The notes below the pieces were generated by a model. It was not told where the DNA came from. It saw only the letters and a list, made by a program, of their open reading frames with translations, and searched no databases. From IMG/VR virus record IMGVR_UViG_3300046518_000226, positions 1-64,000 of that record: a stretch of 64,000 nucleotides of DNA. One strand, 5' to 3'. Below, one piece after another: positions 1,026 to 24,001 of this stretch. This DNA is from a virus. The translations under genes and the position numbers were made by a program. The stretch's first letter is position 1, and the number at the start of each line of letters is the position of its first letter.

Positions 1026-1433
1026 ATGGAAAATTGCGCGCAATCCGGTGATCCAGCCGTGGGCATTTCCGAGGTCGTACAAAAACGCGTGCGCGAGGGG
1101 GCGCCAATTTCCGGCGCGGAGGTGTTTAGCGCGCAAGACAATTGGCAGCTCGAACCGCACGTGTGCCGGGTCTGTTTCGGGCGCCTGGTGTCGAGGCCGG
1201 CGTTCGGCTTGCTGCGGGAGTACCGCTGCACGAACTGCGAGACGACCAGCCAGCACACCGATGCCTCCGTGGCGTGCTGTTGCGGGATCAAGGTGCGCAA
1301 GCGGAACAGCACGGGGCGCCACGGCGGCGTGATGATCGATGCCGGGATCCGCTGCATCGTCAATCCCGAGAAAAGCCCAGCGTTCCCAGCGGCTTACGTC
1401 GCGTCGGAAGTGGTCAAGGTGAAGCGCACCTGA
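1026..1433 (+). CDS. Zn-finger-like hypothetical protein
   Basis: CRVC, CTNC, CCC; abuts the upstream stop. Confidence 0.7.
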   Translation: MENCAQSGDPAVGISEVVQKRVREGAPISGAEVFSAQDNWQLEPHVCRVCFGRLVSRPAFGLLREYRCTNCETTSQHTDASVACCCGIKVRKRNSTGRHGGVMIDAGIRCIVNPEKSPAFPAAYVASEVVKVKRT

Positions 1434-1520
1434 TTGTCAATCAGGGTCTCTGCTCCCTAAGTTGTTGATTTGTAAGGCTCTGGCAACTGCGCTCTGATTT
1501 TCGGGCGCAGGTTGGGCGCA
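1429..1520 (+). repeat. Composite core-IHF-tandem repeat site, copy 1
   Basis: CCTGA-TTGTCAA-TCAGG; IHF consensus on the reverse strand 1458-1470; TTTCGGGCGCAGGTTGGGCGCA 1499-1520. Confidence 0.85.
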
Positions 1521-1625
1521 AAGCAAAGTTCGCTCCCACGGTGAAACAGCAACAAATCAGGTGGGCATTAATCAAATCCGAGTTGTATACTGACCACTTC
1601 GCTCCCACAACACGAGAGAAAGGGC

Positions 1626-1952
1626 ATGACACACGAATTCAAGCCATCTGACCCAGCGCTGATCATCGGCGCGTTCAGCTTGACCCAGAACATCGGCAAG
1701 CAATGCGAGCTGATCCAGTTCGTTCAAACCGACGAGATCTACACCGCACCGAATGGCATCACGTACCAGCACGCCGACGTGCCGTCTTGGATCGTTCGCG
1801 GCGAAGGTATGTGCCAATGGTTCGACGATGGAACCGTCCAGCAAAGCGACTGGGGTGTATGCGCGCCGCAGCACCTGATGCCGATCCGCGGTGATGAGAA
1901 CCCCGACGCCCAACTGGCGACCAGCGCCCCGCGCCAGGCGGTGACCGTATGA
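1626..1952 (+). CDS. Phage hypothetical protein
   Basis: RBS and upstream TATACT (1586-1591); first gene of an overlapping string. Confidence 0.75.
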   Translation: MTHEFKPSDPALIIGAFSLTQNIGKQCELIQFVQTDEIYTAPNGITYQHADVPSWIVRGEGMCQWFDDGTVQQSDWGVCAPQHLMPIRGDENPDAQLATSAPRQAVTV

Positions 1953-2305
1953 GCCGGGTCTACATCTCCGGCCCCATGACCGGCCTGCCAGAATTCAACT
2001 ACCCCGCGTTCAACGCTGCCGCTGCCCAGCTCCGCGCCGCCGGCCTGCACGTCGAGAACCCGGCCGAGAGCCCTGCGCCTGAGTGCAACAGCTGGCTCGG
2101 GTTCATGCGCCTGGCCGTCGCTCAACTGGCGACCTGCGACTACGTCGTCACGCTGCCCGGCTGGGAGAACTCCAAGGGTGCCCGCGTCGAGGTTGATCTG
2201 GCTCGCGCCCTGGGCTTCCCGGTCAAGCCGCTGCACGAGTTCCTGCGCATCGCCGAGCTGTGGCTGGCTGAGCCGACCGTCGTGACACGAGGCTCCGATG
2301 TATGA
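1949..2305 (+). CDS. DUF4406 / nucleoside deoxyribosyltransferase-like protein
   Basis: VYISGPMTG..FNYPAF, NPAE, LPGWENSKGARVE. Confidence 0.85.
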   Translation: MSRVYISGPMTGLPEFNYPAFNAAAAQLRAAGLHVENPAESPAPECNSWLGFMRLAVAQLATCDYVVTLPGWENSKGARVEVDLARALGFPVKPLHEFLRIAELWLAEPTVVTRGSDV

Positions 2306-3612
2306 GCCTGACCACGAACCTACCCTACGCCCTATGTCTGGGCGATTGCCTGGAGACGCTGCGCACGCTGCCGGATTGTTCGGTCGATAGCGTGGTGACA
2401 GATCCGCCCTACGGAATCCGGTTCATGGGCAAGAGCTGGGACGGCGAGGACATCGAGGCCCGCGCCGCTTACCGGGCCAGCATGCCGTCTCACGCTCCAG
2501 CCTGTGGCCCGAACGGCGGTCACCGCTCAGTCGCCGCCGAGGCCGGCAAGTACGACCTGACGCCCGAGGGTATGCGCGCCTTCCAGGCCTTCACGCTGGA
2601 ATGGGCCACCGAGTGCCTGCGCGTGCTCAAGCCTGGCGGTCACCTGCTGTCGTTCGCCGCTGCCCGCACCTACCACCACATGGCGGTCGGCATCGAGATG
2701 GCTGGCTTCGAGATCCGCGACCAGATCATGTGGGTGTTCGGCTCGGGCTTCCCGAAGTCGCACAACCTCAAGGGCGAGCACGACGGCAAGGGCACCGCGC
2801 TGAAGCCTGCGCATGAGCCAATCTGCATGGCCCGCAAGCCGTTCACCGGCACTGTCGCGGCCAATGTCGCCGTCCACGGCACCGGAGCGCTGAACATCGA
2901 CGCCTGCCGGATCCACGGCGCCGACGCGCAGGCTACCGAGTACACCCAGAAGCGGATGGCTCCCGGCCACGTGGTCAACGACACCGGCGCCTGGAAACAG
3001 GACGCGCAGTTCACCGGAACGCTGAAGGCTGGCCGCTGGCCCGCGAACCTGATCCACGACGGCAGCCCTGAGGTGGTGGTGATGTTCCCTGCGGAGGCCG
3101 GCGCCTCGTCGCGCGTCCGCGGCACCGAGGCCAGCGCCGCCAGTGTCGGGCTCATCACCGGGCACCGCGATCGGGTTGAGGGCGCCTTCCACGGCGACAG
3201 CGGCAGCGCAGCCCGGTTTTTCTACTGCGCCAAGACCAGCCGCACTGATCGGCACGAGGGCCTGACCAATCCCGGCCCGCAGTTCACCCGCGGCACCACC
3301 CTACGCAAGGTCGAGAACACCCCGACGACCGGGAACAACCACCCCACGGTCAAACCCACCGACCTCATGGCCTACCTGCTGCGCCTGGTGACCCCGGCCG
3401 GCGGCGTGGCGCTCGATCCGTTCATGGGCAGCGGCAGCACCGGCAAGGCAGCGATGCGCGAGGGCTTCCGGTTCATCGGGTGCGAGCTGGACGAGGCCTA
3501 CATGGCAATCGCCCGGGCACGCATCGAGCATGAGCATGACAAGGTGTCGGCAGCTGCTGAGCTGACCGCTGCCATGCCCGCTCAAGTCGACATGTTCGAG
3601 GCCCTGGCATGA
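2302..3612 (+). CDS. N6A/N4C DNA methyltransferase (beta class)
   Basis: DPPY near the N-terminus; HPTVKP and DPFMGSGSTG near the C-terminus. Confidence 0.95.
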   Translation: MSLTTNLPYALCLGDCLETLRTLPDCSVDSVVTDPPYGIRFMGKSWDGEDIEARAAYRASMPSHAPACGPNGGHRSVAAEAGKYDLTPEGMRAFQAFTLEWATECLRVLKPGGHLLSFAAARTYHHMAVGIEMAGFEIRDQIMWVFGSGFPKSHNLKGEHDGKGTALKPAHEPICMARKPFTGTVAANVAVHGTGALNIDACRIHGADAQATEYTQKRMAPGHVVNDTGAWKQDAQFTGTLKAGRWPANLIHDGSPEVVVMFPAEAGASSRVRGTEASAASVGLITGHRDRVEGAFHGDSGSAARFFYCAKTSRTDRHEGLTNPGPQFTRGTTLRKVENTPTTGNNHPTVKPTDLMAYLLRLVTPAGGVALDPFMGSGSTGKAAMREGFRFIGCELDEAYMAIARARIEHEHDKVSAAAELTAAMPAQVDMFEALA

Positions 3613-4004
3613 ACGCCTGTAGCTGGGTTGCCCCGATGGTCACCCTGCTCGACGGCCGCATCGTGCCCAGCGACAGCGAGGAGTGGCGTGCGGAATGCGA
3701 GGCGCGCCACATGCTCAGCTTCCCGCTCGGGCTCGATCGCGGAATGACGGGCGAGACCCGCAAAACCGCTCTTGAGCGCATCGGTCAGAAGCGAGGCCCT
3801 GAAGCCATGGCCGCCCTCAGCGAGGCCATGAGCGCCTGCGAGCCAGACCACGTCCTCAGGCTGCCGAACAAGCACCAGCGCAATCGGTACATCGAGGCCG
3901 TGAGCCACTTCGTCGGCGAGAACGCTGCCGAGCACCTGAAGCAGCGCGTGATGGCGCTGCACAAGGCCCGCGCCGCAAGTAATTGCGCCGAGTCATCAGC
4001 GTGA
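3609..4004 (+). CDS. Phage hypothetical protein
   Basis: ATGA overlap; SEEWRAECEAR motif. Confidence 0.75.
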   Translation: MNACSWVAPMVTLLDGRIVPSDSEEWRAECEARHMLSFPLGLDRGMTGETRKTALERIGQKRGPEAMAALSEAMSACEPDHVLRLPNKHQRNRYIEAVSHFVGENAAEHLKQRVMALHKARAASNCAESSA

Positions 4005-4059
4005 TGCATAATTGATCAACGCCGCCGTGGGCTGCACGGAAACACTAGGGGAAAGGATA

Positions 4060-4254
4060 GTGAAACTACTCAGAGCTTTGTGGGATGGTTTAGGGGACGA
4101 CAGGCTGGGCCTGCTGCTTGCTGGCGGGACGCTTGTCATAGCGATCACGGAACTCAAATCTGGTGACTACACGGCTGCTGTGATCGACTTGGCCTTCGCA
4201 GCAACCATCGGCTACTTCGCATGGCGCGACATTGGCCGGGCGGTGCGCTCGTGA
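4060..4254 (+). CDS. Small membrane protein
   Basis: GAAAGGA RBS + GTG; two hydrophobic stretches. Confidence 0.6.
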   Translation: MKLLRALWDGLGDDRLGLLLAGGTLVIAITELKSGDYTAAVIDLAFAATIGYFAWRDIGRAVRS

Positions 4255-4430
4255 ACGCCTTCGAGTTCATGTCGGGCAACCCGCTGCTGACCCTGCTGCT
4301 GGTCTACATCGTGGCGCGGTACGGCTTCCGCTGCTGGAACCGCTTGATGCGCCACCTGAACATCCGCAAGCACGGCTGGCCGCCTGCCCACCTCGACGCC
4401 GATGGTGACTTCGAGGATGACCAGCCATGA
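4251..4430 (+). CDS. Small membrane protein
   Basis: GTGA overlap; one TM segment; GWPPAHLDADGD tail. Confidence 0.65.
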   Translation: MNAFEFMSGNPLLTLLLVYIVARYGFRCWNRLMRHLNIRKHGWPPAHLDADGDFEDDQP

Positions 4431-4630
4431 GCCAGTCCTACCTCTGCTTGGGCGGCCCGCATGACGGTAAGCGCCTTGCCCACGATGGCACCGTGTACCG
4501 GGTGGTTATCGCGCCCGATCCGCAAACAACCCAGCCCTATCCCGGTCAATGCCCGGTGCGAGATGTGGGTATCACCCGCGAGTACCACCTGCAAATGCGC
4601 GGCGACGTGCCGGTCTGGGTGTTCCAATGA
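4427..4630 (+). CDS. Hypothetical protein
   Basis: ATGA overlap; GGPHDG motif common in small phage proteins. Confidence 0.65.
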   Translation: MSQSYLCLGGPHDGKRLAHDGTVYRVVIAPDPQTTQPYPGQCPVRDVGITREYHLQMRGDVPVWVFQ

Positions 4631-4920
4631 CCGCCCGGTTGCAGGTCATGGCCTGCACCGGCAAGTTCCAATACGCGTGGACGCTCGTGAAGAACGTCCG
4701 CAGTGGCTACCGCCGCGCCCAGCGCTGCGATGACCGTGACGGCCCGTACAGCAAGATCCGGTGGGTCAAATGAAGATCGTCGCCCTGCTGTACGTGCTGG
4801 ACGAGCCGATAGAGTTCGAGATGCGCGCTTACCTGCGCCGCACCTGGTGGGGAATGAACCGGGTGCGCGCGTGAACAAAGACCAACCTACCCCGCCGGCG
4901 AGCCCGGCCTTGGAGCACGT

Positions 4921-5157
4921 GTGACACAAGCCCCACGCCACCACATGACCGGCAAGGGCGGCAAGCCGCTCATGACCGACGCGCAGGTTCTCGAAGCGCG
5001 AGCCCTGCAGGACTTCGCCGACTGGTCGCTCGACCAGGTGCAGGAGCGCTTCCCTCAGATCCAGCGCGACACCCTGAAGGCGATCCTCGACTACCGGAAC
5101 CGGAGCCGCCTGATCCCGAAAGAACACCACCTGCCAACTGGCGTGGAGGCTGTATGA
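4921..5157 (+). CDS. Small HTH-like protein, paralog A
   Basis: Shares LMTDAQ.LEARAL...RSRL...HLP..VEAV with the next gene. Confidence 0.75.
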   Translation: MTQAPRHHMTGKGGKPLMTDAQVLEARALQDFADWSLDQVQERFPQIQRDTLKAILDYRNRSRLIPKEHHLPTGVEAV

Positions 5158-5498
5158 CTTGGGCTACCAGTGCACACGGCAGCAAGAACATGAAGCTTTC
5201 TGGCGCCGCGATGAGCGTTGCCAATGCCTGCCTTGCTGAGTCCGTAAATACGGCCATCGCAAAGCGGAAAGCTGATCGAGAAGCCGAGCCAAAGCGTCGA
5301 GGCGCACACTCGCTGATGACCGACGCTCAGATCCTGGAGGCCCGCGCCCTGAGCGAGTTCGCCGGCTGGAGCCGCGCCAGTCTGGAGGAGCGCTTTGGCG
5401 TCGACACCGCCACGATGAAGCGCGTGCTGTCGGGCGTTACCCGTTCACGCCTGGTGGCAAGCCGCAAACACCTGCCCGCCGACGTGGAGGCCGTATGA
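5154..5498 (+). CDS. Small HTH-like protein, paralog B
   Basis: Paralog of 4921-5157; ATGA overlap. Confidence 0.75.
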   Translation: MTWATSAHGSKNMKLSGAAMSVANACLAESVNTAIAKRKADREAEPKRRGAHSLMTDAQILEARALSEFAGWSRASLEERFGVDTATMKRVLSGVTRSRLVASRKHLPADVEAV

Positions 5499-5893
5499 GC
5501 CAGGCCGCCTTGTCGCAGGAGCTGCAAGCCGGTGTGGACGAGTTCCTGCGCCGTGGCGGCACCATCACCCAACTGAACTGGGCGGGCGTGCCGATCGATG
5601 GAACGCCGGTGGAGCCGAAGCCGGTGCGTTCCTACGGGCGTGAGTACGAGCGCGTGGCGGCCGAGAAGGCGCTGAAGGCAAAGGCCGCTCCGGCGCCGGC
5701 GGTAGTGATCCCCGAGCCCGTGGTGACGCGGCGCGTCGATCCGCAGCCTGAACCAGCCCCCTGCATCATCGCCGAGCTGCGTAGCATCCGTGCTGAGGCG
5801 CGCCGGTTGATCGCCCACGTGGACACCCTGGCGGCGGCAATGCAGCGCGACTCTGATACGGAATCAGGGTTTCACAGCAGCCAGACCCAATAG
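5495..5893 (+). CDS. Hypothetical protein
   Basis: ATGA overlap; VDEFLRRGGTITQL motif. Confidence 0.7.
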   Translation: MSQAALSQELQAGVDEFLRRGGTITQLNWAGVPIDGTPVEPKPVRSYGREYERVAAEKALKAKAAPAPAVVIPEPVVTRRVDPQPEPAPCIIAELRSIRAEARRLIAHVDTLAAAMQRDSDTESGFHSSQTQ

Positions 5894-5943
5894 AATCAAC
5901 GACTTACCAACAGCAACACCATTTCGGGCGCCATTCGGGCGCA
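5852..5943 (+). repeat. Composite core-IHF-tandem repeat site, copy 2
   Basis: TCTGA-TACGGAA-TCAGG; AATCAACGACTTA 5894-5906; TTTCGGGCGCCATTCGGGCGCA 5922-5943. Confidence 0.85.
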
Positions 5944-5981
5944 AAAACCAGCCTGAAAGGGCAAAAACTGAGACCACCGCT

Positions 5982-6368
5982 ATGAGCGAGCTTCAAGAAT
6001 TCGTCGAACACATCCAGACCTGGCACGCGAACCAGATGGGCCAGCTGAAGACCATCCTCGACGCGCCGAAGGGCACCGAGATCCGACTGGGCGCTGCTGA
6101 GGATGCCATCGTGCTGACTGGCGACAAGGCCGAAGGCTTCCGCATGGGCGTCATCGTCGCGCAGAGCTTCCTGGGCAAACTGCCGTTCTCGGTCGAGATC
6201 AACGCGCCCGATGAGGATGACGACCTCGCCGGCCGCAACCTGGACATGGTCAAGGGCGTCGAGGTCATCGACACCGCCACCGGCCTACCGAAGGCCTGCG
6301 CCTCCGACTGCGCCACCAACAACCGCGGCTGCCCCGAGCTGCTGGGGCCGTGCGACTGCAAGGCCTGA
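5982..6368 (+). CDS. Phage hypothetical protein
   Basis: Phage-like codon bias; LGKLPF motif; Cys-rich tail. Confidence 0.75.
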   Translation: MSELQEFVEHIQTWHANQMGQLKTILDAPKGTEIRLGAAEDAIVLTGDKAEGFRMGVIVAQSFLGKLPFSVEINAPDEDDDLAGRNLDMVKGVEVIDTATGLPKACASDCATNNRGCPELLGPCDCKA

Positions 6369-6398
6369 CCATTCCCCCGCCGGCTTTCGGGCCGGCAC

Positions 6399-6728
6399 TC
6401 ACTCCGCCTCGCGCAGACGCCCCGCCACCCAATCGTTCAGGCTCACCCCGTGGGCAGCAGCAGCCACCACCGCCTTCTCGTGCAGCTCGGGATCCAGCCT
6501 GACGTTGAACTTGCCCGAGAACTTCCGGAACGGCTCGTACCCAGCTTCCTTGCAGTCCTCCAGGTAGACACGCAGCGACACTGAGCCTTCCTTGCGCAGC
6601 TGCTCCACGTCCTTGGCGTAGAAGTCCGCCCCGCCGCTCAGGCCGATGAACTCGCCGCGGAACATCTCAATCTCGGGATCGAATGCGATGATCGCCTTCT
6701 GCCCGTCGATGGTCATCACGTTGATCAT
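6399..6728 (-). CDS. hicB: HicB family antitoxin
   Basis: MFRGEFIGLSGGADFYA...FSGKFNVRLDPELH...SLNDWV; starts at MINVM. Confidence 0.92.
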   Translation of the reverse strand: MINVMTIDGQKAIIAFDPEIEMFRGEFIGLSGGADFYAKDVEQLRKEGSVSLRVYLEDCKEAGYEPFRKFSGKFNVRLDPELHEKAVVAAAAHGVSLNDWVAGRLREAE

Positions 6729-6979: not shown

Positions 6980-7209
6980 GCCATCGTGGTACTGGAATTT
7001 GGTACTGCGAGCAAGGCGCCGCAAGCCTGATCACGCTTGGTTGATCAAAAAAATAACAGCACCAAAAGCCTCCAACCTTCACCCATGTTCACGATTGTTC
7101 CTGCCTTCACGCGAGTCATCCCGAACAGTCCCGATTAGTCCCAAAATGCTCTCTTGCGACGCGCAAGCACATCAAAGATAAGTGACTTACCGCAACAGGG
7201 AGTTGAGCA

Positions 7210-7461: not shown

Positions 7462-7480
7462 CGCTTAAGGCGCTCCGGCG

Positions 7481-7495: not shown

Positions 7496-7525
7496 CATTC
7501 CAGACCTCAACCTCTGGACTGAACT

Positions 7526-9627: not shown

Positions 9628-10320
9628 ATGAACGAAAACCTTGAGGCGTTACAGGCCCGCATTGATCAAGCTGGCGACGGCATGGTCGAGTGCGGGAGTG
9701 GCCTGCGCCTGTCGATGGCAAAGTCTGGCACCCGGGTCTGGAGCTACCGGTACCAGCTTGAGGGCGTCCGCCGTCAGGCCGGGCTCGGATCCTACCCGAA
9801 GGTGCCGCTCATCGAGGCGATCGCCAAGCGCGACCAGATGCGGGCGCTGCGGGACAAGGGGATCGACCCCCTGTCGGCAAAGCACGCGGCCAAGAAGCCC
9901 GACGCCGATGTCGAGGAGCTGCTGAGCGCGATCGATGGTGCGCTCGCCCTGGTGCAGCGGATGTCAGCCTCGGCTGACACCAAACTCATGTCTCAGGCGC
10001 TGGGCAGCATCAAGCGTCGCACGGTGGTGGCGCTGGGCGCGCGCAAGGGCCTGGCGATCCGCCGAACCGATGGCCTGCCCCATGCGAACGGCTGGATCTC
10101 GTGCGTGGTCGACGCCGGCGGCGCAGTGGTCGAGCACGCCATCTCCAGCACCGAGCAGCACGCCTATGCCACGGCCGAGCAGCTGGCCGCGAGGCACACG
10201 GGAGCTGAGGTTCGGATCTTCGCGCAGGAAGCGAAGCTGATGCACCTGGGCGTGGTCTACGACGAGGATGGCCGGGGCAGGCCGCGCAATGTCAGGCCCG
10301 AGCCGGGCGATCCGTTCTGA
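9628..10320 (+). CDS. Integrase arm-binding domain (DUF4102-like) protein without catalytic domain
   Basis: GLRL...SGTRVWSYRYQLEG.RR..GLGSYPKVPL.EA...GIDP; no R-HxxR-Y motifs. Confidence 0.85.
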   Translation: MNENLEALQARIDQAGDGMVECGSGLRLSMAKSGTRVWSYRYQLEGVRRQAGLGSYPKVPLIEAIAKRDQMRALRDKGIDPLSAKHAAKKPDADVEELLSAIDGALALVQRMSASADTKLMSQALGSIKRRTVVALGARKGLAIRRTDGLPHANGWISCVVDAGGAVVEHAISSTEQHAYATAEQLAARHTGAEVRIFAQEAKLMHLGVVYDEDGRGRPRNVRPEPGDPF

Positions 10321-10602: not shown

Positions 10603-10695
10603 CCAGACTCACAGTCTGGGTCTCACGGCATTAACACAGAGCAATCGCAGGCACTTAGCCGACGCACCGTCACTTTCGGGCGCAGGTCGGGCGCA
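10603..10695 (+). repeat. Composite core-IHF-tandem repeat site, copy 3
   Basis: CCAGA-CTCACAG-TCTGG; ..GCACTTA ends 10657; TTTCGGGCGCAGGTCGGGCGCA 10674-10695. Confidence 0.85.
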
Positions 10696-10829: not shown

Positions 10830-11699
10830 GTGCCAATCATCAAACGTGCCCCCGGCTCAGTGTTCACCGAATTCAACCTCGGGTCGGTGAGGCTATACGA
10901 CTCAAGGTTATGCGGGCTCGAACGGCTCAGGATGTCTGAGCACGCCATCTGTCTGTATCCTTACGAGGAGTCCGTCAGCCAAGAAACCTGGGAGGGCCAG
11001 GCGTTACCGAGAAAGCACTGGGAGGTTGGCTCTATCGGATTTATGCCCGCGAACTCAGAACTAATATCGACGCCGGACAAGCCCTACAGGGAGCTTGGAA
11101 TCCGGCTCGACAACAGCATGTTCGCAAAGGCGGTCGATGGGCTGGTTGATCAAAGCCAGATCGACTTTCGCTTCGCTGACGTCACCGACCCGACAGCATT
11201 TCAGCTTGGGTGCTTGCTACTGGAGGGCGCCAAGACCGATCGCATTGGTGAGTGGCCGATGCTGGTCGAGTCCATGTCCATGGCGTTGGCCGTTGCGCTC
11301 GTCCGCAAGCTGTGCCCCAAGACGGCGCGAGCTATGGGAGCGGATTCGTATGACCTGGGCGACTGTCGTAAGCGCCGGGTGCTTGAGTACATCGAGGCCA
11401 ATCTGAACAAGCACATCAGCCTGATGGAGCTGGCGAAGGTGGCTGCTCTGAGCCAGTACCACTTCAGCCGCCAGTTCCAGCGTCAGTTTGGCATGTCGCC
11501 GATCCGCTACATCCAGCGACGCCGGGTCGAGCTGGCGAAACAGCTGCTGCTGCGCGCGGGCTCTACGATTGCCAGCGTCGCGCATGACTGCGGCTTCGGC
11601 GGCCAGAGCCACTTCACAACGGCATTCAAGGCGGTCACCGGGGTTACGCCTGGAGAGTACCGCCGCAGCGGAGGTCAGTTGGTCGCCGACGCCGCTTGA
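10830..11699 (+). CDS. AraC family transcriptional regulator
   Basis: ISLMELAKVAALSQYHFSRQF...VAHDCGFGGQSHFTTAFK..TGVTPGEYR. Confidence 0.95.
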   Translation: MPIIKRAPGSVFTEFNLGSVRLYDSRLCGLERLRMSEHAICLYPYEESVSQETWEGQALPRKHWEVGSIGFMPANSELISTPDKPYRELGIRLDNSMFAKAVDGLVDQSQIDFRFADVTDPTAFQLGCLLLEGAKTDRIGEWPMLVESMSMALAVALVRKLCPKTARAMGADSYDLGDCRKRRVLEYIEANLNKHISLMELAKVAALSQYHFSRQFQRQFGMSPIRYIQRRRVELAKQLLLRAGSTIASVAHDCGFGGQSHFTTAFKAVTGVTPGEYRRSGGQLVADAA

Positions 11700-11704
11700 A
11701 CCGA

Positions 11705-11911
11705 TCAGGCAGCGATAGCGCTGCCGCCGCCGGTCACCTGCTGGCCCTCCCACTCCTCGATATCAGCAATCAGGTAGCGCACCCGCGATCCGAACTTCCG
11801 GTACCGCGGGCCGCACCCCTTCGATCGCCAGTTGGCGAGGGTTCCGGTGACGACGGCGCCTTCCCAGCGCTCGGAGAGTTCCTTTGGGGTCAGGTATTTT
11901 TTGAGGTGCAT
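11705..11911 (-). CDS. Excisionase/AlpA-like HTH protein
   Basis: YLTPKELSERW...TLANWR..G.GP.YRKFG.RVRY; GGAGG RBS. Confidence 0.88.
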   Translation of the reverse strand: MHLKKYLTPKELSERWEGAVVTGTLANWRSKGCGPRYRKFGSRVRYLIADIEEWEGQQVTGGGSAIAA

Positions 11912-14882: not shown

Positions 14883-15055
14883 TGTCCAAGATCACTCACC
14901 TGAAACCTGCGGTCACCCAGCGCTACTGCCCCGGGTGCGCCTACCTGGTGTCACAGGTCGAGATCGAGGCCATGCGTTTCAACCTGTCTTGCCCGCGATG
15001 CCAGCAGCACAAAATGAGCGAGTTCAAGCCTGCGTGGGTGCAACCCAGATGCTGA
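14882..15055 (+). CDS. Small Zn-ribbon protein
   Basis: CPGC...CPRC; TGATG overlap. Confidence 0.65.
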   Translation: MSKITHLKPAVTQRYCPGCAYLVSQVEIEAMRFNLSCPRCQQHKMSEFKPAWVQPRC

Positions 15056-15137
15056 ATCTGGGTTTCTCCGGCATTCCACGTAGACAAAACGGGCACTTAG
15101 CGGTGCCCGTTGTTGTTTCGGGCGCTATTCGGGCGCA
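15045..15137 (+). repeat. Composite core-IHF-tandem repeat site, copy 4
   Basis: CCAGA-TGCTGAA-TCTGG; ..GCACTTA ends 15099; TTTCGGGCGCTATTCGGGCGCA 15116-15137. Confidence 0.85.
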
Positions 15138-15154
15138 ACGGCGCCGATAACTCG

Positions 15155-15169
15155 TCGTGATGCCACCAT
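15155..15169 (+). promoter_or_regulatory. Late-promoter motif, leaderless start
   Basis: TCGTGA-tgc-CACCAT-6 nt-ATG(15176). Confidence 0.8.
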
Positions 15170-15175
15170 CGGCAC

Positions 15176-18100
15176 ATGAACGAACTCGCCGCTCCAACAG
15201 CAGAACGCCGCGTAGTCCTGCTGATCAAATCCTCAAAGATCGCCCACCAAGCGGGTTACTTCCTGCTGAACGGTCGGTGGCACAAGGTCGCCCAGCACAA
15301 GCCTGCTCCGAAGGGCGCGCCTGTCGCTGCCCACCCGGTGGCCGCCGGCCTTCACCAGCCTGTCACCATGGAGCCCGGTCAGGTCGACGCGCTCAAGTAC
15401 CCTGCCGACAAGGCCGCGGCGAACTCGGAGATGGCAGCGTTCAACAACGTGCACCTGCCCAAGCTCGTGGCCCATGCCGCGAATGGCGACGCCACTGCGA
15501 TCCTCGGGCACGGCTACGGCTCGAACACCCACGGCAAGAAGGCTGCGAAGGTCGCGAACTACCTGCTCAGCGAGATGGGCAGCCCGCACCAGGTGACTGC
15601 CGGCCAGAAGGCTGGCGAGCACCACGCGGTGAAGCAGACGCCGGCCGAGCAGCCAGCCGCCCCTGAGCCGGTCAAGGCGCCCGTCGAGGAGCCGAAGGCC
15701 GTCGAGCCCGCCCCGGTCGAGGTCGCCCCCGAGAAGCCTGCCGACTCCCCGGCCATGCCCGCGTTCGTCGAGGGCAAGACCACCACGGGCGTCGTCGACT
15801 ACTACCAGAAGCAAGCCCAGAAGATCCTCGACATGGGCGCCGCTGGCGACGTGGCCGGCCTGGCAGCGATGATGGATGAAGGCCTGAAGCCGAACAGCAA
15901 GGGCAAGGTCTCCAACACGTTCGCCGGCAAGACCGCCAACAGCAAGATGCTGCTTGAGCTGCATGCTGCTACCTTGCAGCAAGCTGGCAGCAAGGTCGAT
16001 GCGGCCATGGAGGCGAATCCTCCGGCGCCGGCCGTCGAGCAACCTGTCGCAGCGATCGAGCAGCCTGCTGCACCAGCTGCGGCCAGTTCCGCCCCCACCG
16101 CGGCCAGCATGGTCGCCCAGATCCCGTGGGACAGCCTCAAGCTCCCCGACAGCAACACCAACGCCAAGACCTTCAACAAGAAGCTCGGCGAGATCCAGAC
16201 GGCGGCCGAGGCTGGCGACCTGGCGGCGCTGGAGGGCATGAAGTTCGGCGTCAACACCTACGGCAAGAAGGCCGCCAAGGTGGCCGCGGCGGCAATCGCC
16301 GCACTGAAGGAAGGCGCTCCCGCTGCTGAGCCAGCTCCCGCGCCGGAGCCAGCCACCGCGGCCGAGGAAGGCCCGAAGGACGGCGACACCAAGCCCGGCG
16401 CCAACGGTACGACCCTCGTGTTCAAGGATGGCCGCTGGCACAAGCAGGTCGCCACCGATGAACACGGCGAGATGCCGCCCACGCTGGTTCCGGTCGGCGA
16501 CGAAAACGGCACGCTCAACCTGACTGAGGCCGAGAAGCAGGCAGTATTCGACTACCTCAACAGCACCGAGGCGACTGAGGATCAGTACGCGGCCGGCAAG
16601 GAGATCTTCAAGAAGCTGCCCGAGGAGCTGAAGCAGGCGCTCAACCTGGCGGCGATCAACTTCAAAGCGTCGGCTGATGTGGCGGCTGCATCCACGCATC
16701 CGATCGACGCGGTGCCGATGCCGGACATCTCCAGCATGACGCCGGCTAGCCAGTCGAAGGTGCACACCGCGCTCGCGCTCCTACAGGCGAAGGTGAAGGC
16801 TGAAGGCCCGTCTGCCCTGAAGGGCGTCACCAAGAAGATGAACGCGTCGGGCAAGCTGATCGTCAAGCTGCCTATCTCCGACGTGCAGGGCATCAAGCTC
16901 GCGAGCAAGATCCCTGGCAGCGCGACATCGCAGGTCTACGACTACATCGAGGCCCTGAAGGCTGCGGTCGGCCCGGCCAAGAAGGCGCCGAAGGCCAAGC
17001 CTGCGCCGGTCACTGCCGCGCCGCACGCCGATCAGAACGCCATCCCGGCGATGGACGACTGGAAGCAAGTCGGGCCGCAGGGTGGCAGCAACCCGGGTGG
17101 CAAATTCGTCGATAGCTCCGGCACCGAGTGGTACTGCAAATTCCCGTCCGACCCCGACGTGGCGAAATCCGAGGTGCTGGCGGCCAAGCTGTATGGCGCG
17201 GCCGGCGTGGCAGGCCAGGACGCCATGCTGGTCACCAAGGATGGCAAGCTCGGCATTGCCAGCAAGTGGCATGAGGTCAGCAAGGCCTCCCCTGCCGAAC
17301 TGGCGAAGGTCGACGGCGTGGCCGCTGGCTTCGCGACCGATGCCTGGCTCGGCAACTGGGACGTGGTCGGCCTCGGCTACGACAACCTGCAGGTCGATGC
17401 CAACGGCAAGGCCATGCGTGTCGATGCCGGCGGTTCGCTGGAGTACCGCGCGCAGGGTGGCAAGAAGTCGTTCGGCAACGTCGTCACCGAGCTGGACAGC
17501 CTGCGCGACGCCAAGATCAACCCGCAGGCGGCCAAGGTGTTCGGCCACCTCTCGCAGGCCGACATCACCGCCTCAGTGGCGAAGGTGCTGAAGGTCAGCG
17601 ACGCGCAGATCCATGCGCTGGTGAACACCTACGGCCCTGGCACCGCCGCGGACAAAAAGGCCCTCGCCGAGACGCTGATCGCCCGCAAGGCCGACCTGCT
17701 CGCCAAGTTCCCCAAGGCCAAGAAGGAGAAGAAGCACACCTTCAAGCCGGAGAAGATCAGCGAGCCGCCGAGCTTCCTGAACTGGGGCGGCAGCGGGAAG
17801 GATGGCCCGTCGAGCAAGCCATTCCTCAACCAGGCGAACGAGAAGGCCGTCCAGTCGATCTACGAGGCCGCCAAGACCGGCAGCATCGACGCGGTCAAGA
17901 ACCTTACCGCCGAGACCTACAACAAGAGCACCGGAGAGGTCACCGGCAGCGCGCCCGTGCTCGAACACCCTTCGCAGCACGTGAAGGGCTACGCGCAGCA
18001 GGCCGTCAACGAGATCACCCAGCAGCTGAACCCGCCGAAGCGATTCCGCTTCGAGGGTGGTCACCCGCTGCACTCGCTCAACAGCGCCTACCCGTCTCAC

Positions 18101-18790: not shown

Positions 18791-19287
18791 GCAACGACCT
18801 AAACCACCACAACGACCCGACCGGCCTGGCGGCCTCAGCTGCCGAGGCGACGGGTGCGCGGCCCTACCTCGGCGATGTCAACGACATCGACCATCTGCTG
18901 CGCCAGTTCACCGAGGGCGTGACCAGCCGCTTCGCTCAGGTTGGCCGCGGCCAGCTCGCTCCGGATGCGGCGGCCGAGGCCGATCGAGCCGAGTGCCTGC
19001 GCATGGCGGAGGTGTTCGACGGTCAGGATGATGCCTACGCCACGATCGAGAACTGGAACGGCGAGGGCCTGGCAAATTACATCCGCGCCCGCATGGCCGA
19101 GTCCGTGCAGCCTGATGAGGACGATGAGCAGATCATCGCCCAGGCCTTCGCGCTGTTCGTGCACCGCATCTACGGCGCCATCACCGCGGCCGGCGCGAGC
19201 CCTGATCAGGATGCCCTTGTGGCAGCCCTGCAGGACAACATCCGCTCCTTCACCTGGCTGCTGGTGGGCCTTGAATCCAATGAGTAG
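18787..19287 (+). CDS. Acidic helical hypothetical protein (possible immunity protein or chaperone)
   Basis: Overlaps both neighbouring genes. Confidence 0.75.
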   Translation: MSNDLNHHNDPTGLAASAAEATGARPYLGDVNDIDHLLRQFTEGVTSRFAQVGRGQLAPDAAAEADRAECLRMAEVFDGQDDAYATIENWNGEGLANYIRARMAESVQPDEDDEQIIAQAFALFVHRIYGAITAAGASPDQDALVAALQDNIRSFTWLLVGLESNE

Positions 19288-20107
19288 TTCTTTCGAGGCG
19301 CAGATGGATCTGTTGATGGGCGGCGACCTGGACGAGCCTGAACCGCTCGAAAAGGCGCACGTCGGTGGGTACACCAAGAAGAACGGCACCTACGTCAAGC
19401 CGCACAACCGTGCTGGCGATGCGGCTCATACAGGCCCAGTGCACCACCACCCCCGCGCGGGAGAGAAAGGCGAAGCCGTCGTGGTCAAGGCTCCCAGTCA
19501 CGCATCGGCGCCGAGCACCTGGCACCACCCTGATGCGGTTGCCACGTTCGTGCCCGATGGCGACGTGCCGTCTTCGATCAATGGCGTCGGCCTTCGCGCC
19601 TGGAGGGATCACCCGAAGACCTCCGAGGGCTGGGATTACGTCGATGGTCAGATGGATGACCTCGACGAGCCGGCTTTCCACCTGCCGCCCGGGAAGAAGG
19701 CCGCCAGCGGTGTCGTCATTGAGGAGCCGGATGGCCGTGTGTGGCTGATCGCTCCGACCAACCAGTTCGGCGGGTACCACGCCAGCTTCCCCAAGGGCAC
19801 GGCCGAGCCGGATCTGTCGCTCCAGGCCAACGCCATCAAGGAGGCGTTCGAGGAAAGCGGATTGAAGGTCGAGATCACCGGCTTCCTCGGTGACTACGAG
19901 CGCACCACCTCGGTGGCCCGCATGTACAGGGCTAAGCGAGTGGGCGGGACGCCGATCGCCATGGGCTGGGAGAGCCAGGCCGTGCACCTGGTGCCGAAGA
20001 CGCACCTCTACGACCACCTCAACATGTGGTCTGACCATGGCATTGCCGAAGTAATCGGCGCCGGTGAGCCGCCTTCACCGAAAGTAACTGCAAGTATTCG
20101 TAAATAA
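19280..20107 (+). CDS. Nudix hydrolase with N-terminal KAHVGGYTKKNGTYVKPH segment
   Basis: Nudix box GTAEPDLSLQANAIKEAFEESG. Confidence 0.9.
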   Translation: MSSSFEAQMDLLMGGDLDEPEPLEKAHVGGYTKKNGTYVKPHNRAGDAAHTGPVHHHPRAGEKGEAVVVKAPSHASAPSTWHHPDAVATFVPDGDVPSSINGVGLRAWRDHPKTSEGWDYVDGQMDDLDEPAFHLPPGKKAASGVVIEEPDGRVWLIAPTNQFGGYHASFPKGTAEPDLSLQANAIKEAFEESGLKVEITGFLGDYERTTSVARMYRAKRVGGTPIAMGWESQAVHLVPKTHLYDHLNMWSDHGIAEVIGAGEPPSPKVTASIRK

Positions 20108-20119
20108 TCACGCTAGCAC

Positions 20120-20149
20120 TTGCGCGCTTGATCAAATTTGATATACGCT
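20120..20149 (+). promoter_or_regulatory. Sigma70-like promoter with operator-like CTTGATCAAAT in the spacer
   Basis: TTGCGC-18 bp-TACGCT. Confidence 0.65.
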
Positions 20150-20182
20150 AGCCTCATCGTAAACGAACATGAGGTCTAGCGT

Positions 20183-20542
20183 ATGTGGATTTGCCTATCC
20201 GATGCCTTCTTGAGCATCGTTCATAAAGACTGTGAGCCTGATGAGCTGCTGGTTCGCGCTCGTCGCCAGGGCGACATCCAGAAAGTATTCCCGAATGCCG
20301 TGGTCAAGAAGACCATTGGCAACGACTATCTCTATCGCGCCGCAATCAAGCGCGCCGAGGTGGCCGAAGCGTTCGCTACTCTGGCGCTGGATACGATTGA
20401 CTATCCGAACTTCAAAAACACCGTTCGCGACAACAAGCTGCACAACGCCTTCAATGCGATCTGGCACACGGTCGCCAAGTTGCAGGCGATCGCGCCCTAC
20501 AGCAGTCGTCGTCCTGCTCGCCAGCGGGGTCTCGGCCTGTGA
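20183..20542 (+). CDS. Conserved hypothetical protein
   Basis: MW....AFLSIV..LLVRARR..DY.YRA..IDYPNFK. Confidence 0.8.
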   Translation: MWICLSDAFLSIVHKDCEPDELLVRARRQGDIQKVFPNAVVKKTIGNDYLYRAAIKRAEVAEAFATLALDTIDYPNFKNTVRDNKLHNAFNAIWHTVAKLQAIAPYSSRRPARQRGLGL

Positions 20543-22224
20543 ACGCCGTTACCGGAACCATCCACGGCGAGCTGATCGAGGACGTGAGCGAGTTCTTCGC
20601 TCCCATGGCGAGCGATCTGGTAGACAGCCTCGTCGGTGAGTACGACGCCACCCGCAAGCGATTGGAGCACATGGCGGCTGCCGTGTCCTCCGAGGCCTGC
20701 CGCGGCGTGCTGCACTACTTCGTTGAGGGCAACGTCGGCGATCAGCGCCACAGCATGCCCACGACTGTCGGGGCTTTGTTCGCGCTGGAAGGCGCCGTCG
20801 CGCACCTCAATGCCGACTTCTGGAACCGCGCCCTGCGCCTGACCGACGTCATCGACTACATGCCGCAGAAGCGGCGCGATGAGTGGTTCGAGCAGATCCG
20901 CAACCCGCTGGGCAAGAAGAAGCACCGCAGCAGCTGGGACAAGGATGCGCCCGAGTGGGAAGTCGCGCCCCTTCCTGAGTTCGAGGAGGACAGCGTCCGC
21001 GCCACCCTCTCTAGCCTACTTGCGAGCCGTGCCAAGTTCCTCGCCGAGCGCGTCGACGGCATCTTCCGCAGCCTGAGCCGCCAGCACGTCACCAACCAGC
21101 CTCAGGGCTTCAGCAAGCGCATGATCATCGCTGGCGTGCACAGCTACGGCACGGCCGGGCAAATCACCGACCTGCGCTGCGTGATCGCCAAGTTCATGGG
21201 GCGCGACGAGCCCAAGCACGGCGCCAGTGACCCGATCATCAAGGCCGCCGGCCGCCAGAACGGTCAGTGGATGACGATCGACGGCGGCGCGCTCCGGATC
21301 CGCGTTTACGGCGGCGTCGGCACTGCGCACCTGGAAGTTCACCCCGAGATGGCCTGGCGTCTGAACGCCATCCTTGCCAGCCTGTACCCGGCGGCGATCC
21401 CGGCCGAGTTCCGCGAGAAGCCGAAGCGCGCGAAGAAGATCAAGGACTTCGAGCTGTTCGACCGCCCGCTGCCGTTCGCGGTGGTCGACGTGCTGGCCCA
21501 GATGAAGCTCGGCTGGGAGCGCAAGGAGAACCCGCACCACCGTGAACACCCATTCCGTGATGTGCCGCGCACTCGCCGCTTCGATCACCATGGCGAGCGC
21601 GACAAGGCGACCATCGCCGAGGCCATCAAGGTGCTGGAGGCGATCGGCGGCGTGAAGGATGCGAAGGAGAGCTACTGGCGCTTCGACTACGAGCCCGCCG
21701 ACGTGCTCGACCAGATCGTGTGCTCAGGCTGCATCCCAGACCACAAGTCGCACCAGTTCTACCCGACGCCGCAGACCGTGGCCGAGGCCGCGATCGAGCT
21801 GGCGATGGTTGGCGCCGAGCCTGGGATGAACTGGCTGGAGCCGAGCGCAGGGCAAGGCGGGCTCGCCGACCTGATGCCCAAGGACGATACCTTCTGCGTC
21901 GAGATCAGCGACCTGCACTGCCAGATCCTCAAGGCGAAGGGGCACATCGTTGAGCAGGCGGACTTCCTCAAATGGGGGCTTTCGATCGGCAAATACGACC
22001 GCATCGTGATGAACCCGCCTTTCAGCGAAGGCCGCTGGCAAGCCCACGTCGAGCACGCTGCGACCATGGTCAAACCTGGTGGACGCCTCGTGGCTATTCT
22101 GCCGCCAACGGCAAAGAACAAGGACTGGCTGTCAGACTTCGATTTGGAATTCTCCAAAACCTACAGCAACGAGTTCGCCGGGACGAGCGTGTCGGTGGTG
22201 ATCCTGACCGCAACACGCAAGTAA
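20539..22224 (+). CDS. DUF4942-like domain + class I SAM (adenine) methyltransferase
   Basis: QFYPTP, LEPSAGQGGLA, VMNPPF. Confidence 0.88.
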   Translation: MNAVTGTIHGELIEDVSEFFAPMASDLVDSLVGEYDATRKRLEHMAAAVSSEACRGVLHYFVEGNVGDQRHSMPTTVGALFALEGAVAHLNADFWNRALRLTDVIDYMPQKRRDEWFEQIRNPLGKKKHRSSWDKDAPEWEVAPLPEFEEDSVRATLSSLLASRAKFLAERVDGIFRSLSRQHVTNQPQGFSKRMIIAGVHSYGTAGQITDLRCVIAKFMGRDEPKHGASDPIIKAAGRQNGQWMTIDGGALRIRVYGGVGTAHLEVHPEMAWRLNAILASLYPAAIPAEFREKPKRAKKIKDFELFDRPLPFAVVDVLAQMKLGWERKENPHHREHPFRDVPRTRRFDHHGERDKATIAEAIKVLEAIGGVKDAKESYWRFDYEPADVLDQIVCSGCIPDHKSHQFYPTPQTVAEAAIELAMVGAEPGMNWLEPSAGQGGLADLMPKDDTFCVEISDLHCQILKAKGHIVEQADFLKWGLSIGKYDRIVMNPPFSEGRWQAHVEHAATMVKPGGRLVAILPPTAKNKDWLSDFDLEFSKTYSNEFAGTSVSVVILTATRK

Positions 22225-22226
22225 TG

Positions 22227-22257
22227 CTTGCTCAAATCTGAGTAACGGCGCTACAAT
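22227..22257 (+). promoter_or_regulatory. Sigma70-like promoter with operator-like CTTGCTCAAAT
   Basis: TTGCTC-18 bp-TACAAT; perfect 13-bp hairpin 22281-22313 in the leader. Confidence 0.7.
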
Positions 22258-22341
22258 CACAGCGCATAAACAGAAATCACCGTAAGGCGCCAAAATACAC
22301 TTGGCGCCTTACGCACATCAAAAGCCTAACGAGAATAATGT

Positions 22342-23094
22342 ATGCGCGTAGAAAACGATGTTTTGAACGTCCTGAGCCGTGCTGATGTATTCGGAAATGT
22401 TCTGACGCTGGTCGGCCAGCTGGATCGCAAACTGTATGAGCGCACCAACAAGGTTCTGGAAGCCGCTGGTGGTAAGTGGAATCGCAAGGCAAAGGCCCAT
22501 GTGTTCGATGGTGATGCTGCTGAACGTGTGGAGCAGATCATCCTCACCGGCGACGTGCTTGTGCCGAAGGATGATTTTGAGTTTTTCCCAACGCCGCCGG
22601 AAGTCGTGGAGCGCCTGCTTGAAATCGCGGACATCCGGGATGGGATGCTGGTGCTGGAGCCTAGCGCAGGGCAGGGCGCGATCGCCAAGGCCGTACACGG
22701 TGCCGCTGAGGGCGTCATGCTCGATATGTATGAGCTGATGCCAGCGAACAACGATGCACTGCACGCACTGAACCTCAGCCTGTCAGGAATTGGCGAGCCG
22801 TGCGACTTCCTGACGGTCGAGCCGAAGCCGATCTATGACCGGGTGGTGATGAACCCGCCTTTTGGCCGTCAAGCTGACATCAGGCACGTGCAGCACGCAC
22901 TGAAGTTCCTGAAGCCTGGCGGTCTGCTGGTATCGGTGATGGGCGGCGGCGTCAGTTTCCGCGATAACAAGCTCACAACCGATTTCCGCAGCATCGTGGC
23001 GGCGAAGGGCGGCACCATCGAGGCGCTGCCGGACGGTGCTTTCAAGGCGTCCGGAACTATGGTCAAAACCGTCATTGTGACCATCCCGAACTGA
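22342..23094 (+). CDS. Class I SAM (adenine) methyltransferase
   Basis: FFPTP, LEPSAGQGAIA, VMNPPF, FKASGT.V.T. Confidence 0.9.
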   Translation: MRVENDVLNVLSRADVFGNVLTLVGQLDRKLYERTNKVLEAAGGKWNRKAKAHVFDGDAAERVEQIILTGDVLVPKDDFEFFPTPPEVVERLLEIADIRDGMLVLEPSAGQGAIAKAVHGAAEGVMLDMYELMPANNDALHALNLSLSGIGEPCDFLTVEPKPIYDRVVMNPPFGRQADIRHVQHALKFLKPGGLLVSVMGGGVSFRDNKLTTDFRSIVAAKGGTIEALPDGAFKASGTMVKTVIVTIPN

Positions 23095-23146
23095 TCAACC
23101 CAGTCATCAACAAACCGCCGGGCGCTGCCCGGCAGGGGAAAGGAAG

Positions 23147-23917
23147 GTGAGTGAACCAATTGTGCTGAACCTCGACGCGATCGAGGCGGCGGCGAAGGCG
23201 GCAATGACAGAGCAGGTGTCAACGCCTTTCCTGCAAAAGACCAATAGCGAGTGCGCAGAGTGGATGCGCTCGTTCTACAAGCCGAGCGCCATTCCGCGCC
23301 TCGATCGCCACTGCACGTGGGCCTGGCAGGAGCAAGAGCGCCGCCATGCTCCGATGATTCTGGAGCTGGTGCGCCGGCTGCGGGCTGCTGAGGCTCTGGC
23401 GGCATCGCGCATCGAGCAGATCCCGGTCGACGCAAAGGTGGTGTCCGTCTTCTACGACTTCACTCCCGACCATCAGGATCAAGCTGAGGAATTCGCCGAA
23501 GCCATCAAGAAGCGCTGCACGAGCGGGCGCTGGACGCTGGTGGCGTTTTTCCCGGTCGGCGCCAGCATCACCGCCCTGAACGATGAACAGCTGCGCGAGG
23601 CCGGGCTTGCGCTGGCTGATAAATCGCTGCCGATCCAGGAAGCTTGGGAGGCCGCCGGCGGGAACCCTGACATCAAGGCGACCCGCGAGGAATTGATCTC
23701 CGCCCTTCGCATGATGGACGAGGCAGAGGATGAATCCGAGCAGAAGGCGGCCGAGCAGAAAGGCAAAATGTTGGTCGACGCTGCTGCCTTGCGCCAGGTG
23801 CTGCAAGCTCTGAACGGCCCAGGCCATCATATCCGCGAACTGCAGGTGTGCCGCGGTCTGCCTGACAGCCCGATCGAAAAGCTGGTTGCCGAGTTCAACG
23901 CGCAGGCCGGCGGCTGA
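23147..23917 (+). CDS. Ead/Ea22-like mosaic phage protein
   Basis: LDAIEAAAKAA..ILELVRRLRAAE; ALRQVLQALNGPGHHIRELQ. Confidence 0.75.
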   Translation: MSEPIVLNLDAIEAAAKAAMTEQVSTPFLQKTNSECAEWMRSFYKPSAIPRLDRHCTWAWQEQERRHAPMILELVRRLRAAEALAASRIEQIPVDAKVVSVFYDFTPDHQDQAEEFAEAIKKRCTSGRWTLVAFFPVGASITALNDEQLREAGLALADKSLPIQEAWEAAGGNPDIKATREELISALRMMDEAEDESEQKAAEQKGKMLVDAAALRQVLQALNGPGHHIRELQVCRGLPDSPIEKLVAEFNAQAGG

Positions 23918-23920
23918 CAC

Positions 23921-24001
23921 CCTGATCCTCAATCAGGTGCGCAGGTAACCAAATCAGTAACTTAGCCGGTAACGGCTCAATTCGGGCGCTCATCGGGCGC
24001 C
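23921..24001 (+). repeat. Composite core-IHF-tandem repeat site, copy 5 (about one helical turn shorter)
   Basis: CCTGA-TCCTCAA-TCAGG; AATCAGTAACTTA 23952-23964; ATTCGGGCGCTCATCGGGCGCC 23980-24001. Confidence 0.85.

Follow-up and report, generated by a model that had tools for sequence, protein, structure and literature searches.

Phage integrases are commonly viewed as enzymes with one job at one site, known at most to repress their own gene through a genuine attachment (att) site. The P' half of such a site, as in lambda attL, comprises the core C-O-C', the site H' for integration host factor (IHF) and the arm sites P'1-P'3. In the case of KplE1, the integrase IntS, like other tRNA-associated integrases, represses its own promoter via arm sites located in attL (PMC2951348). 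The subject here is a stretch of 64,000 nucleotides (the window), positions 1 to 64,000 of the IMG/VR virus record IMGVR_UViG_3300046518_000226, in which a composite element of about 90 bp recurs five times between early gene blocks. As judged from sequence, the five elements copy parts of the phage's own integration site, namely its core and its tandem arm sites, and the integrase probably binds at these gene-block boundaries as well, more likely for regulation than for cutting and rejoining DNA.

The record is complete, with a genome of 94,122 bp, of which the window covers the first 64 kb. The source phage is a temperate Pseudomonas myovirus, with relatives including Pseudomonas phages Touem01, Dolphis and Jeremy, Bordetella phage PHB04 and Aeromonas phage ST4; genome size in the family is about 90-95 kb, and Pseudomonas, Bordetella and Aeromonas are the hosts of the cultured members of the site-bearing lineage. 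Tail-sheath and baseplate genes are present in the three annotations inspected (Touem01, Dolphis and PHB04), and PHB04 is named as a myovirus. From 1 to 29 kb of the window every gene is on the plus strand, the early modules of the source phage including methyltransferases, an AraC-type regulator, a 1204-amino acid ADP-ribosyltransferase protein, a phosphatase and a ParA-like protein.

The composite elements and the genuine integration site

All five elements lie on the plus strand, and each has a 17-bp core, CCWGA-N7-TCWGG (with TCTGA as the left half in copy 2), followed downstream by a tandem of the form TCGGGCGC-N3-TYGGGCGC. Core 1 (CCTGA-TTGTCAA-TCAGG, 1429-1445) is followed by tandem arm-type sites TCGGGCGC-N3-TTGGGCGC, with an 11-bp period, at 1501-1519; core 2 (TCTGA-TACGGAA-TCAGG, 5852-5868) by a tandem at 5924-5942, which is separated by 39 nt from the ATG at 5982; and core 3 (CCAGA-CTCACAG-TCTGG, 10603-10619) by a tandem at 10676-10694, 5' of the AraC-family gene at 10830-11699. 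Core 4 (CCAGA-TGCTGAA-TCTGG, 15045-15061), the identical 17-mer of which is present in a relative (G002, see below), has its tandem at 15118-15136, and core 5 (CCTGA-TCCTCAA-TCAGG, 23921-23937) has a tandem at 23982-24000, then 28 nt and a GTG at 24029 with a ribosome-binding site. The spacing from first base of core to first base of tandem is 72, 72, 73, 73 and 61 bp for copies 1-5, the same series, on another counting base, as the 70, 70, 71, 71 and 59 bp given in a first-pass annotation of the window. Reading of all five copies confirmed the positions and common orientation reported there.

The occurrence of these patterns is far from what chance would give. Exact matches to the tandem pattern in the window number five, against an expectation of about one even with a tolerance of two mismatches; the strict core pattern [CT]CWGA-N7-TCWGG matches the 94-kb genome at the five sites only, shuffles giving 1.4; and the joint core-gap-tandem pattern yields five forward matches in the source genome, none in reverse and none with the reversed-pattern control. 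The IHF consensus WATCAANNNNTTR is matched exactly in copy 1 (1458-1470, minus strand) and copy 2 (5894-5906, plus strand) and with one mismatch in copy 5 (23952-23964, plus strand), so that the assignment of IHF-type boxes to these three copies in the first-pass annotation stands, as does its placing of cores at gene ends, the TGA of core 1 being the stop codon of the open reading frame (ORF) at 1026-1433.

The real attP lies outside the window. A P4-type tyrosine integrase of 436 amino acids, with Arm-DNA-bind_3 (PF13356) and Phage_integrase (PF00589) domains, is encoded at genome positions 64632-65942, and attP occupies the adjoining gap of about 510 bp (65943-66451). A search of the whole genome for the tandem located there, at 66.0-66.45 kb and beyond the reach of the earlier annotation, four further tandem copies and one inverted pair (66,013-66,446), which surround a 45-nt fragment (66,152-66,196) corresponding to the 3' part of tRNA-Arg(ACG), from the anticodon loop through CCA. 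At the left junction of G003, an IMG/VR provirus of the same family (G001-G007 denote genomes compared with that of the source phage), a complete tRNA-Arg(ACG) is followed by the same P' arm, and its anticodon arm, CCAGA-CTACGAA-TCTGG, is an exact match to the core consensus of the five sites, the inverted half-sites of which thus match those of the real core. The consensus of 37 pseudo-cores from tRNA-Arg-integrating phages, CC-W-GA-Y-N4-A-R-TC-W-GGG-NN-TCAg, agrees with tRNA-Arg at each conserved position, also over the 12 nt that lie rightward of the loop, and corresponds to the anticodon arm together with the variable loop.

Since the core copies the tRNA-Arg anticodon arm and the tandem is the attP arm word, each site can be described as a pseudo-att of the lambda attL type (core, spacer, P' arm); the layout likewise matches the C-O-C'/H'/P' half of att, as in lambda attL, with a spacing that equals the core-to-P' distance in the attP of G001 and G004 but not that in the source phage's own attP (see below). 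The proposal that the elements have the layout of tyrosine-integrase att sites is thereby upheld. As for the comparison of spacers with tRNA loops, which had also been suggested, the half-sites are those of the tRNA-Arg anticodon arm, but no spacer between half-sites equals the real overlap, CTACGAA.

Some further observations concern the att regions themselves. In the source phage (genome 66185-66192) and in Dolphis (L007 ~1673-1680) the arm word TCGGGCGC also forms the 3' acceptor strand of the tRNA-Arg fragment in attP, amounting to one extra arm-like site 37 bp from the core; it does not do so in Touem01, which has a different arm word. A variant half-site specific to Touem01, TCTTGTG, is found upstream of the Touem01 int gene (L012 33435-33445), about 58 nt before the P-arm tandem and just 5' of the int start, the same distance as in the early-region composite sites of that phage. 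The attP cores of G001 (L133 14165-14250) and G004 (L151 5072-5158) resemble the anticodon loop of tRNA-Leu(CAA), without the tRNA 3' half, and within about 40 bp past the P' tandem comes an entire tRNA-Leu(CAA) gene, which may substitute for a host gene disrupted on integration; the true attP P' tandem in these two records is 73 bp from the core, as in the pseudo-sites. A scan for sigma70 promoters in the region upstream of attP and int found no promoter.

Conservation, placement and co-variation in relatives

A family-wide set of 49 composite sites was assembled from ten integrase-positive relatives, five of these being IMG/VR records; a further record, G005, with a single tandem match but none of the family's genes, was dropped as a chance match. 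Conservation in relatives, on which the first-pass annotation had let its proposal depend, extends to all ten, with 5-10 sites per genome, co-oriented with transcription and occupying gaps between genes. By the strict pattern there are five sites in the source phage, seven each in Jeremy and Dolphis, six in PHB04, five in ST4, six in G006 and five in G007. Presence of the sites goes together with presence of the integrase module, there being no match to the strict pattern in the three integrase-negative relatives, ECML-606-1, phiT5282EW and fHe-Yen8-01; the reversed-pattern controls also gave none.

Site orientation follows the local gene strand throughout, including the minus-strand blocks of PHB04, G002 and G004, such that the sites are numerous, asymmetric, intergenic and oriented with transcription, as is typical of stoperator-like elements. 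In 19/49 sites the upstream ORF stops at the TGA inside CCTGA, and in about 20/49 the distance from the end of the tandem to the next start codon is 6-22 nt, as estimated from a crude ORF call; PHB04 provides three cases in which, according to the GenBank annotation, this distance is 13-14 nt. The core-to-tandem spacing falls within a 3-bp range at 44 of the 49 sites and is shorter by about 10 or 19 bp, approximately whole helical turns, at the rest. The short spacing of copy 5 recurs, together with the same core sequence CTGA-TCCTCAA-TCAGG, in G006 and G007. Other regularities of the window do not extend as far: the interval of about 4.4 kb between sites, emphasised in the first-pass annotation, is not a family feature, the intervals in relatives ranging from 1.1 to 10 kb, and the covariation of half-sites, which holds at the W positions of 5/5 window copies, is found at only 34/49 sites across the relatives (Fisher p = 0.009), 15/49 being non-complementary.

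The early sites co-vary with the att module of the same phage, their arm-type sites being identical to those of the real attP in the source phage, Dolphis, PHB04 and Touem01. The word TCGGGCGC is present in both attP and early sites of Dolphis, as in the source phage. PHB04, with a tRNA-His-like integration core, has TAGGGCRC in both locations. In Touem01 the tRNA-Arg fragment is kept in attP, but the arm word (C/A)GG(G/C)CC(C/G)C replaces TCGGGCGC, and this divergent word is common to attP and the four early-region sites, which are collinear with those of the source phage. Among eight integrases the GDxW of the arm-binding domain is invariant except in Touem01, where it is GYVC.

Other candidate determinants of the arm word were considered. 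The HU-like, Xis-like and gp50-like proteins of the source phage, and the DNA-binding domain of its AraC protein, are closest to those of Touem01, whereas its arm word is that of Dolphis, the AraC DNA-binding domain of which is the most distant. With the backbone proteins Touem01-like and the word Dolphis-like, it follows that the AraC, Xis-like, HU-like and gp50-like proteins do not set the word, and the AraC-like and Xis-like proteins were rejected as its determinants. Every site-bearing relative in which AraC-like and Xis-like genes were sought has them, and the three site-less relatives have neither. An HU-like gene was found in four of the genomes searched; in the relatives with inspected gene order it shares a strand with int at a distance of a few kb and is the neighbour of the Xis-like HTH_17 gene.

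The first-pass annotation listed the product of one gene within the window among the proteins that might bind the sites. This protein of 230 amino acids, encoded at 9628-10320 (plus strand), is a P4-type integrase arm-binding domain (PF13356) that lacks a catalytic domain. Its similarity to the N-domain of the phage's own integrase is not significant, and searches of eight relatives, seven of which bear sites, did not find it; as a reader of the sites it was accordingly rejected. As a speculation, its targets may be arm sites that belong to another integrase, one resident in the host. At 11735-11911 (minus strand), 1.4 kb from this gene, a second Xis-like (HTH_17-type) copy is encoded.

Across the family the 56-bp spacer has no sequence conservation beyond the tRNA-like stretch adjoining the core. 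Stable folding is predicted for 16/49 spacers, several of which resemble intrinsic terminators abutting the tandem, as in spacer 4, where the T-run of a terminator-like hairpin (15088-15111, plus strand) abuts tandem 4; a few spacers have extended -10 elements. The signals 3' of the tandem are equally varied. Site 1 is followed by a sigma70-like promoter, TGGGCA-18-TATACT (1562-1591, plus strand), the sole such call in 1-20 kb, which lies 5' of the gene at 1626; site 4 is followed by a late-type motif, GTCGTGA...CACCAT (15154-15175, plus strand), which fits a leaderless start at the ATG at 15176 of the 1204-amino acid ADP-ribosyltransferase gene; and no recognisable signal follows sites 2 and 5. 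Because the signals past the tandem are varied or absent, the elements are not themselves a promoter class, and the idea that the tandem is a promoter of the next gene was set aside, the downstream promoters being of several kinds or absent and at variable distances. A reading of the tandem as a sigma54 promoter (GG-N10-GC) fails in PHB04, where a start codon 13-14 nt past the tandem would place the transcription start after the ribosome-binding site. The ORF at 5495-5893, which runs through core 2, scores 25.4 bits in Pfam for the SutA RNA-polymerase-binding domain, below the cut-off of 29.3.

Proposed integrase binding and the competing explanations

Given that all overlaps differ from each other and from the real one, and that no gain or loss of cassettes is seen at the sites of close relatives, the sites are read as non-recombining binding sites for integrase together with IHF or HU. 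The explanation we favour, with confidence that is evenly balanced, is that, in the accessory early operons, these pseudo-att sites serve as boundaries or regulatory elements that depend on the integrase. We infer integrase binding at the sites, and likewise the direction and purpose of any regulation, from their layout and conservation. A P4-type integrase, with its separate arm- and core-binding parts, would contact the tandem and the core of one site together, the spacer being bent either by host IHF, for which copies 1, 2 and 5 have boxes, or by the HU-like protein that the phage encodes. The resulting complex would wrap the full gap from the stop codon of the upstream block to the start of the next, i.e. 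its ribosome-binding site or promoter, and could act as a roadblock to read-through or by promoter occlusion, with the accessory early modules being shut off or insulated as integrase accumulates. KplE1 IntS is a documented case of negative integrase autoregulation through attL arm sites, from which it would be a small step to other promoters.

A broader form of this proposal can be put forward tentatively, with a confidence falling somewhat short of even. Integrase, with IHF or phage HU, could be a genome-wide architectural regulator, forming non-recombining attL-type complexes at every accessory early operon boundary, such that its level, rising with the lysogeny decision, would directly silence or insulate host-takeover and anti-defence modules, and the sites of the regulon would be rewritten in concert upon a change of specificity.

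Several observations weigh against the regulatory reading. IHF boxes occur in just 5/49 family spacers (3/5 in the source phage), which rules out the box as a universal part of the sites. The co-variation of the arm word rests mainly on one divergent lineage, that of Touem01, and the right half-site there, TCTTG, deviates from that phage's own attP core. In the source phage's own attP the P' tandems are at +110 and +139 from the core, not at +72. As the integrase-negative relatives also lack the AraC-like and Xis-like genes, co-occurrence alone cannot single out integrase. The spacers, moreover, are mixed (promoter-like, terminator-like or plain), and a single regulatory logic may not suit all sites.

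It is unlikely that these are real recombination sites, at which the integrase would swap or capture gene modules between relatives during co-infection, or between a phage and a prophage, wherever orthologous sites share an overlap, as in an integron-like shuffling of accessory early genes. The full core geometry with its 7-bp central region would suit such a role, as would the differing module order of the source phage and Dolphis and the retention of an identical 17-mer at some orthologous sites across distant genomes. The sites also lie at mosaic joints, many cross-genome pairs sharing the upstream or the downstream flank only; the check proposed in the first-pass annotation, whether synteny breaks map to the cores, is to that extent positive, but mosaic joints are expected at any phage intergenic boundary and so give recombination no positive support. 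Strand exchange needs an overlap identical to that of the partner site, whereas here the 7-bp centres all differ within each genome and none is the real overlap, CTACGAA; the sites are thus not the alternative attP cores that had been envisaged, nor could they readily recombine with one another, and they have no partner sites of the P-arm type. Between orthologous sites the overlap centre is conserved no better than the spacer (0.40 vs 0.48, p = 0.2), i.e. there is no significant selection for overlap identity at orthologous sites. An integron-like array should gain and lose whole cassettes at the sites. However, the seven sites of Dolphis are also those of Jeremy, the two genomes differing in length inside two intervals (by 926 bp and 574 bp), and the indels between G006 and G007 lie away from their common sites, such that in both pairs the differences are within modules rather than of whole modules, contrary to the excision or shuffling array proposed earlier. 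A role as integrase decoys draws equally on the evidence for integrase binding: many high-affinity attL-like sites would soak up integrase during replication, tuning integration and excision to copy number with no direct effect on transcription, and the non-recombinogenic overlaps and the 5-10 copies per genome agree with this. Such titration is a serious alternative, albeit a rather improbable one, which leaves unexplained both the strict co-orientation with transcription and the extent of the element, from a stop codon to the next ribosome-binding site or promoter.

A comparably low probability is given to the sites being operator or promoter modules for another regulator, i.e. the conserved AraC-family or Xis-like HTH_17 protein, acting also at attP, with no integrase at the early sites. 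P2 Cox and 186 Apl, to which such a regulator may be likened, bind direct repeats both in promoters and in att. Direct repeats with an 11-bp period would be apt targets for proteins of this type, the AraC gene is often directly 3' of a site, and both genes track the presence or absence of sites in the relatives searched; the tandems on both arms of the attP core, however, have the layout of integrase arms, a core resembling a tRNA anticodon arm at a fixed distance is left unexplained, and the arm word varies independently of both the AraC DNA-binding domain and the Xis-like sequence. It is very improbable that the cores are instead RNA or DNA hairpins (terminators or processing sites) at operon ends, with the tandems unrelated. 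This would account for the complementary half-sites in all five window copies, for the location of sites at gene 3' ends and for the stably folding, in several cases terminator-like, spacers (16/49). The middle stem pair is, however, non-complementary in 15/49, and no U-tract follows the core as it would in an intrinsic terminator; a search of the sites against Rfam gave no match. With W complementarity in just 34/49 and no Rfam match, base pairing is not the conserved property, and the conserved right flank, which is the tRNA variable loop, fits recognition of DNA by a protein. Next to no weight can be given to the suggestion that these are multiple cos or pac start sites for the GpA-type terminase, despite a loose likeness to lambda cos in the symmetric site, IHF box and repeats. 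Packaging sites should be retained wherever the cognate terminase is; the three integrase-negative relatives keep a full-length orthologous terminase (54-55% identity) and have no sites, which removes this reading, and in other relatives the sites are on both strands, according to gene direction, with up to 10 per genome.

Neighbouring features and described systems

Other features were noted besides the composite sites. A promoter-like motif of late type is found family-wide: it comprises GTCGTGA and, 5-6 nt further on, an A-rich -10-like hexamer, and in many cases it stops 6-7 nt short of an ATG. On the plus strand of the window it occurs at 7480, 10323, 15154, 27035, 35338, 37007, 39091, 45552, 48965, 54704, 58719, 61229 and 61920, 5' of structural genes and of the ADP-ribosyltransferase gene at 15176; it is present also in Dolphis, Touem01, PHB04, G002 and G003, and its placement predicts, from sequence, leaderless late mRNAs. 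A perfect palindrome, ATCAAATTTGAT, at 20131-20142 lies between a -35-like TTGCGC and a -10-like hexamer, an arrangement of palindrome within promoter that is seen also in Dolphis (79625), G003 (49721 and 21219) and ST4; it is probably an operator of early promoters for a repressor or Cro-type protein. Past the fourth composite site of Touem01 (L001 13400-14150), T-arm-like sequences (GGTTCGAATCC-like) in a 945-bp gene-free stretch suggest tRNA genes or fragments unannotated in the record. In ECML-606-1 (L171 10886-11393) and ST4 (L174 10559-11405) large intergenic regions 5' of the early operon contain dense short direct repeats of the CGGAACGG and GCTACC types, iteron-like in appearance and possibly an origin or partition site.

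Among described systems, lambda attL is structurally close. As there, an inverted core pair surrounds a 7-bp centre, a bend site, in the copies that have one, lies midway and tandem arm repeats follow one helical turn apart, approximately 60-80 bp from the core, a geometry implying that one integrase bridges arm and core. By contrast with lambda attL, the pseudo-sites number 5-10 per genome, are away from attP, each have their own overlap and have no partner site; they lie exactly between genes, co-oriented with transcription, and most are without the IHF consensus. Integron attC sites are likewise co-oriented imperfect palindromes at the 3' ends of gene units, with a tyrosine recombinase encoded in the element, but integrons are without arm sites, attC is folded and single-stranded, and cassettes are gained and lost as units, which is not seen here.

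Other repeated intergenic elements of phages are similar in placement rather than in composition. The stoperators of L5-type mycobacteriophages are single 13-bp sites for the immunity repressor, thought to stop elongation; they too are many asymmetric protein-binding sites in short intergenic gaps, oriented with transcription, whereas the sites here are composites of about 90 bp with integrase core and arm sites. In cluster K mycobacteriophages, start-associated sequences (SAS) and extended start-associated sequences (ESAS) are found immediately 5' of many start codons, often after an inverted-repeat element at a set distance. A conserved repeat close before start codons and an inverted-repeat element at a set distance are shared features, but the sequences are unrelated and do not resemble att parts. 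The PeSLs of T4-type phages, which combine an early promoter with a stem-loop and act by homologous recombination (PMC2839356, PMC4122927), are repeated composite intergenic motifs that bound accessory modules and coincide with mosaic joints, as do the present sites, but have no link to a site-specific recombinase.

A full-text search of the literature, directed at arm-type sites with a role beyond att and at integrase sites resembling stoperators, returned only autoregulation at genuine att sites and the unrelated repeats discussed above (stoperators, SAS/ESAS and PeSLs), and no published precedent for pseudo-att sites between phage operons was found. Yet a whole phage lineage keeps 5-10 extra miniature att sites per genome between accessory operons, matching the arm specificity of the integrase. 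If the integrase binds them, they would constitute a new regulatory circuit, from lysogeny machinery to early gene expression, and a natural heterobivalent recombinase would be serving as an architectural transcription factor. They also provide a rule for annotation, in that the arm and core specificity of P4-type integrases can be read from sequence alone. With Dolphis, Jeremy, Touem01, PHB04 and ST4 in culture, the regulatory reading is directly testable.

In function, the proposed role is similar to that of KplE1 IntS, where a tyrosine integrase regulates transcription via att-type sites overlapping regulatory DNA (PMC2951348). The KplE1 site, however, is a genuine attL and its only target is int itself, whereas the dedicated pseudo-sites described here front many unrelated operons, 40-65 kb from int.

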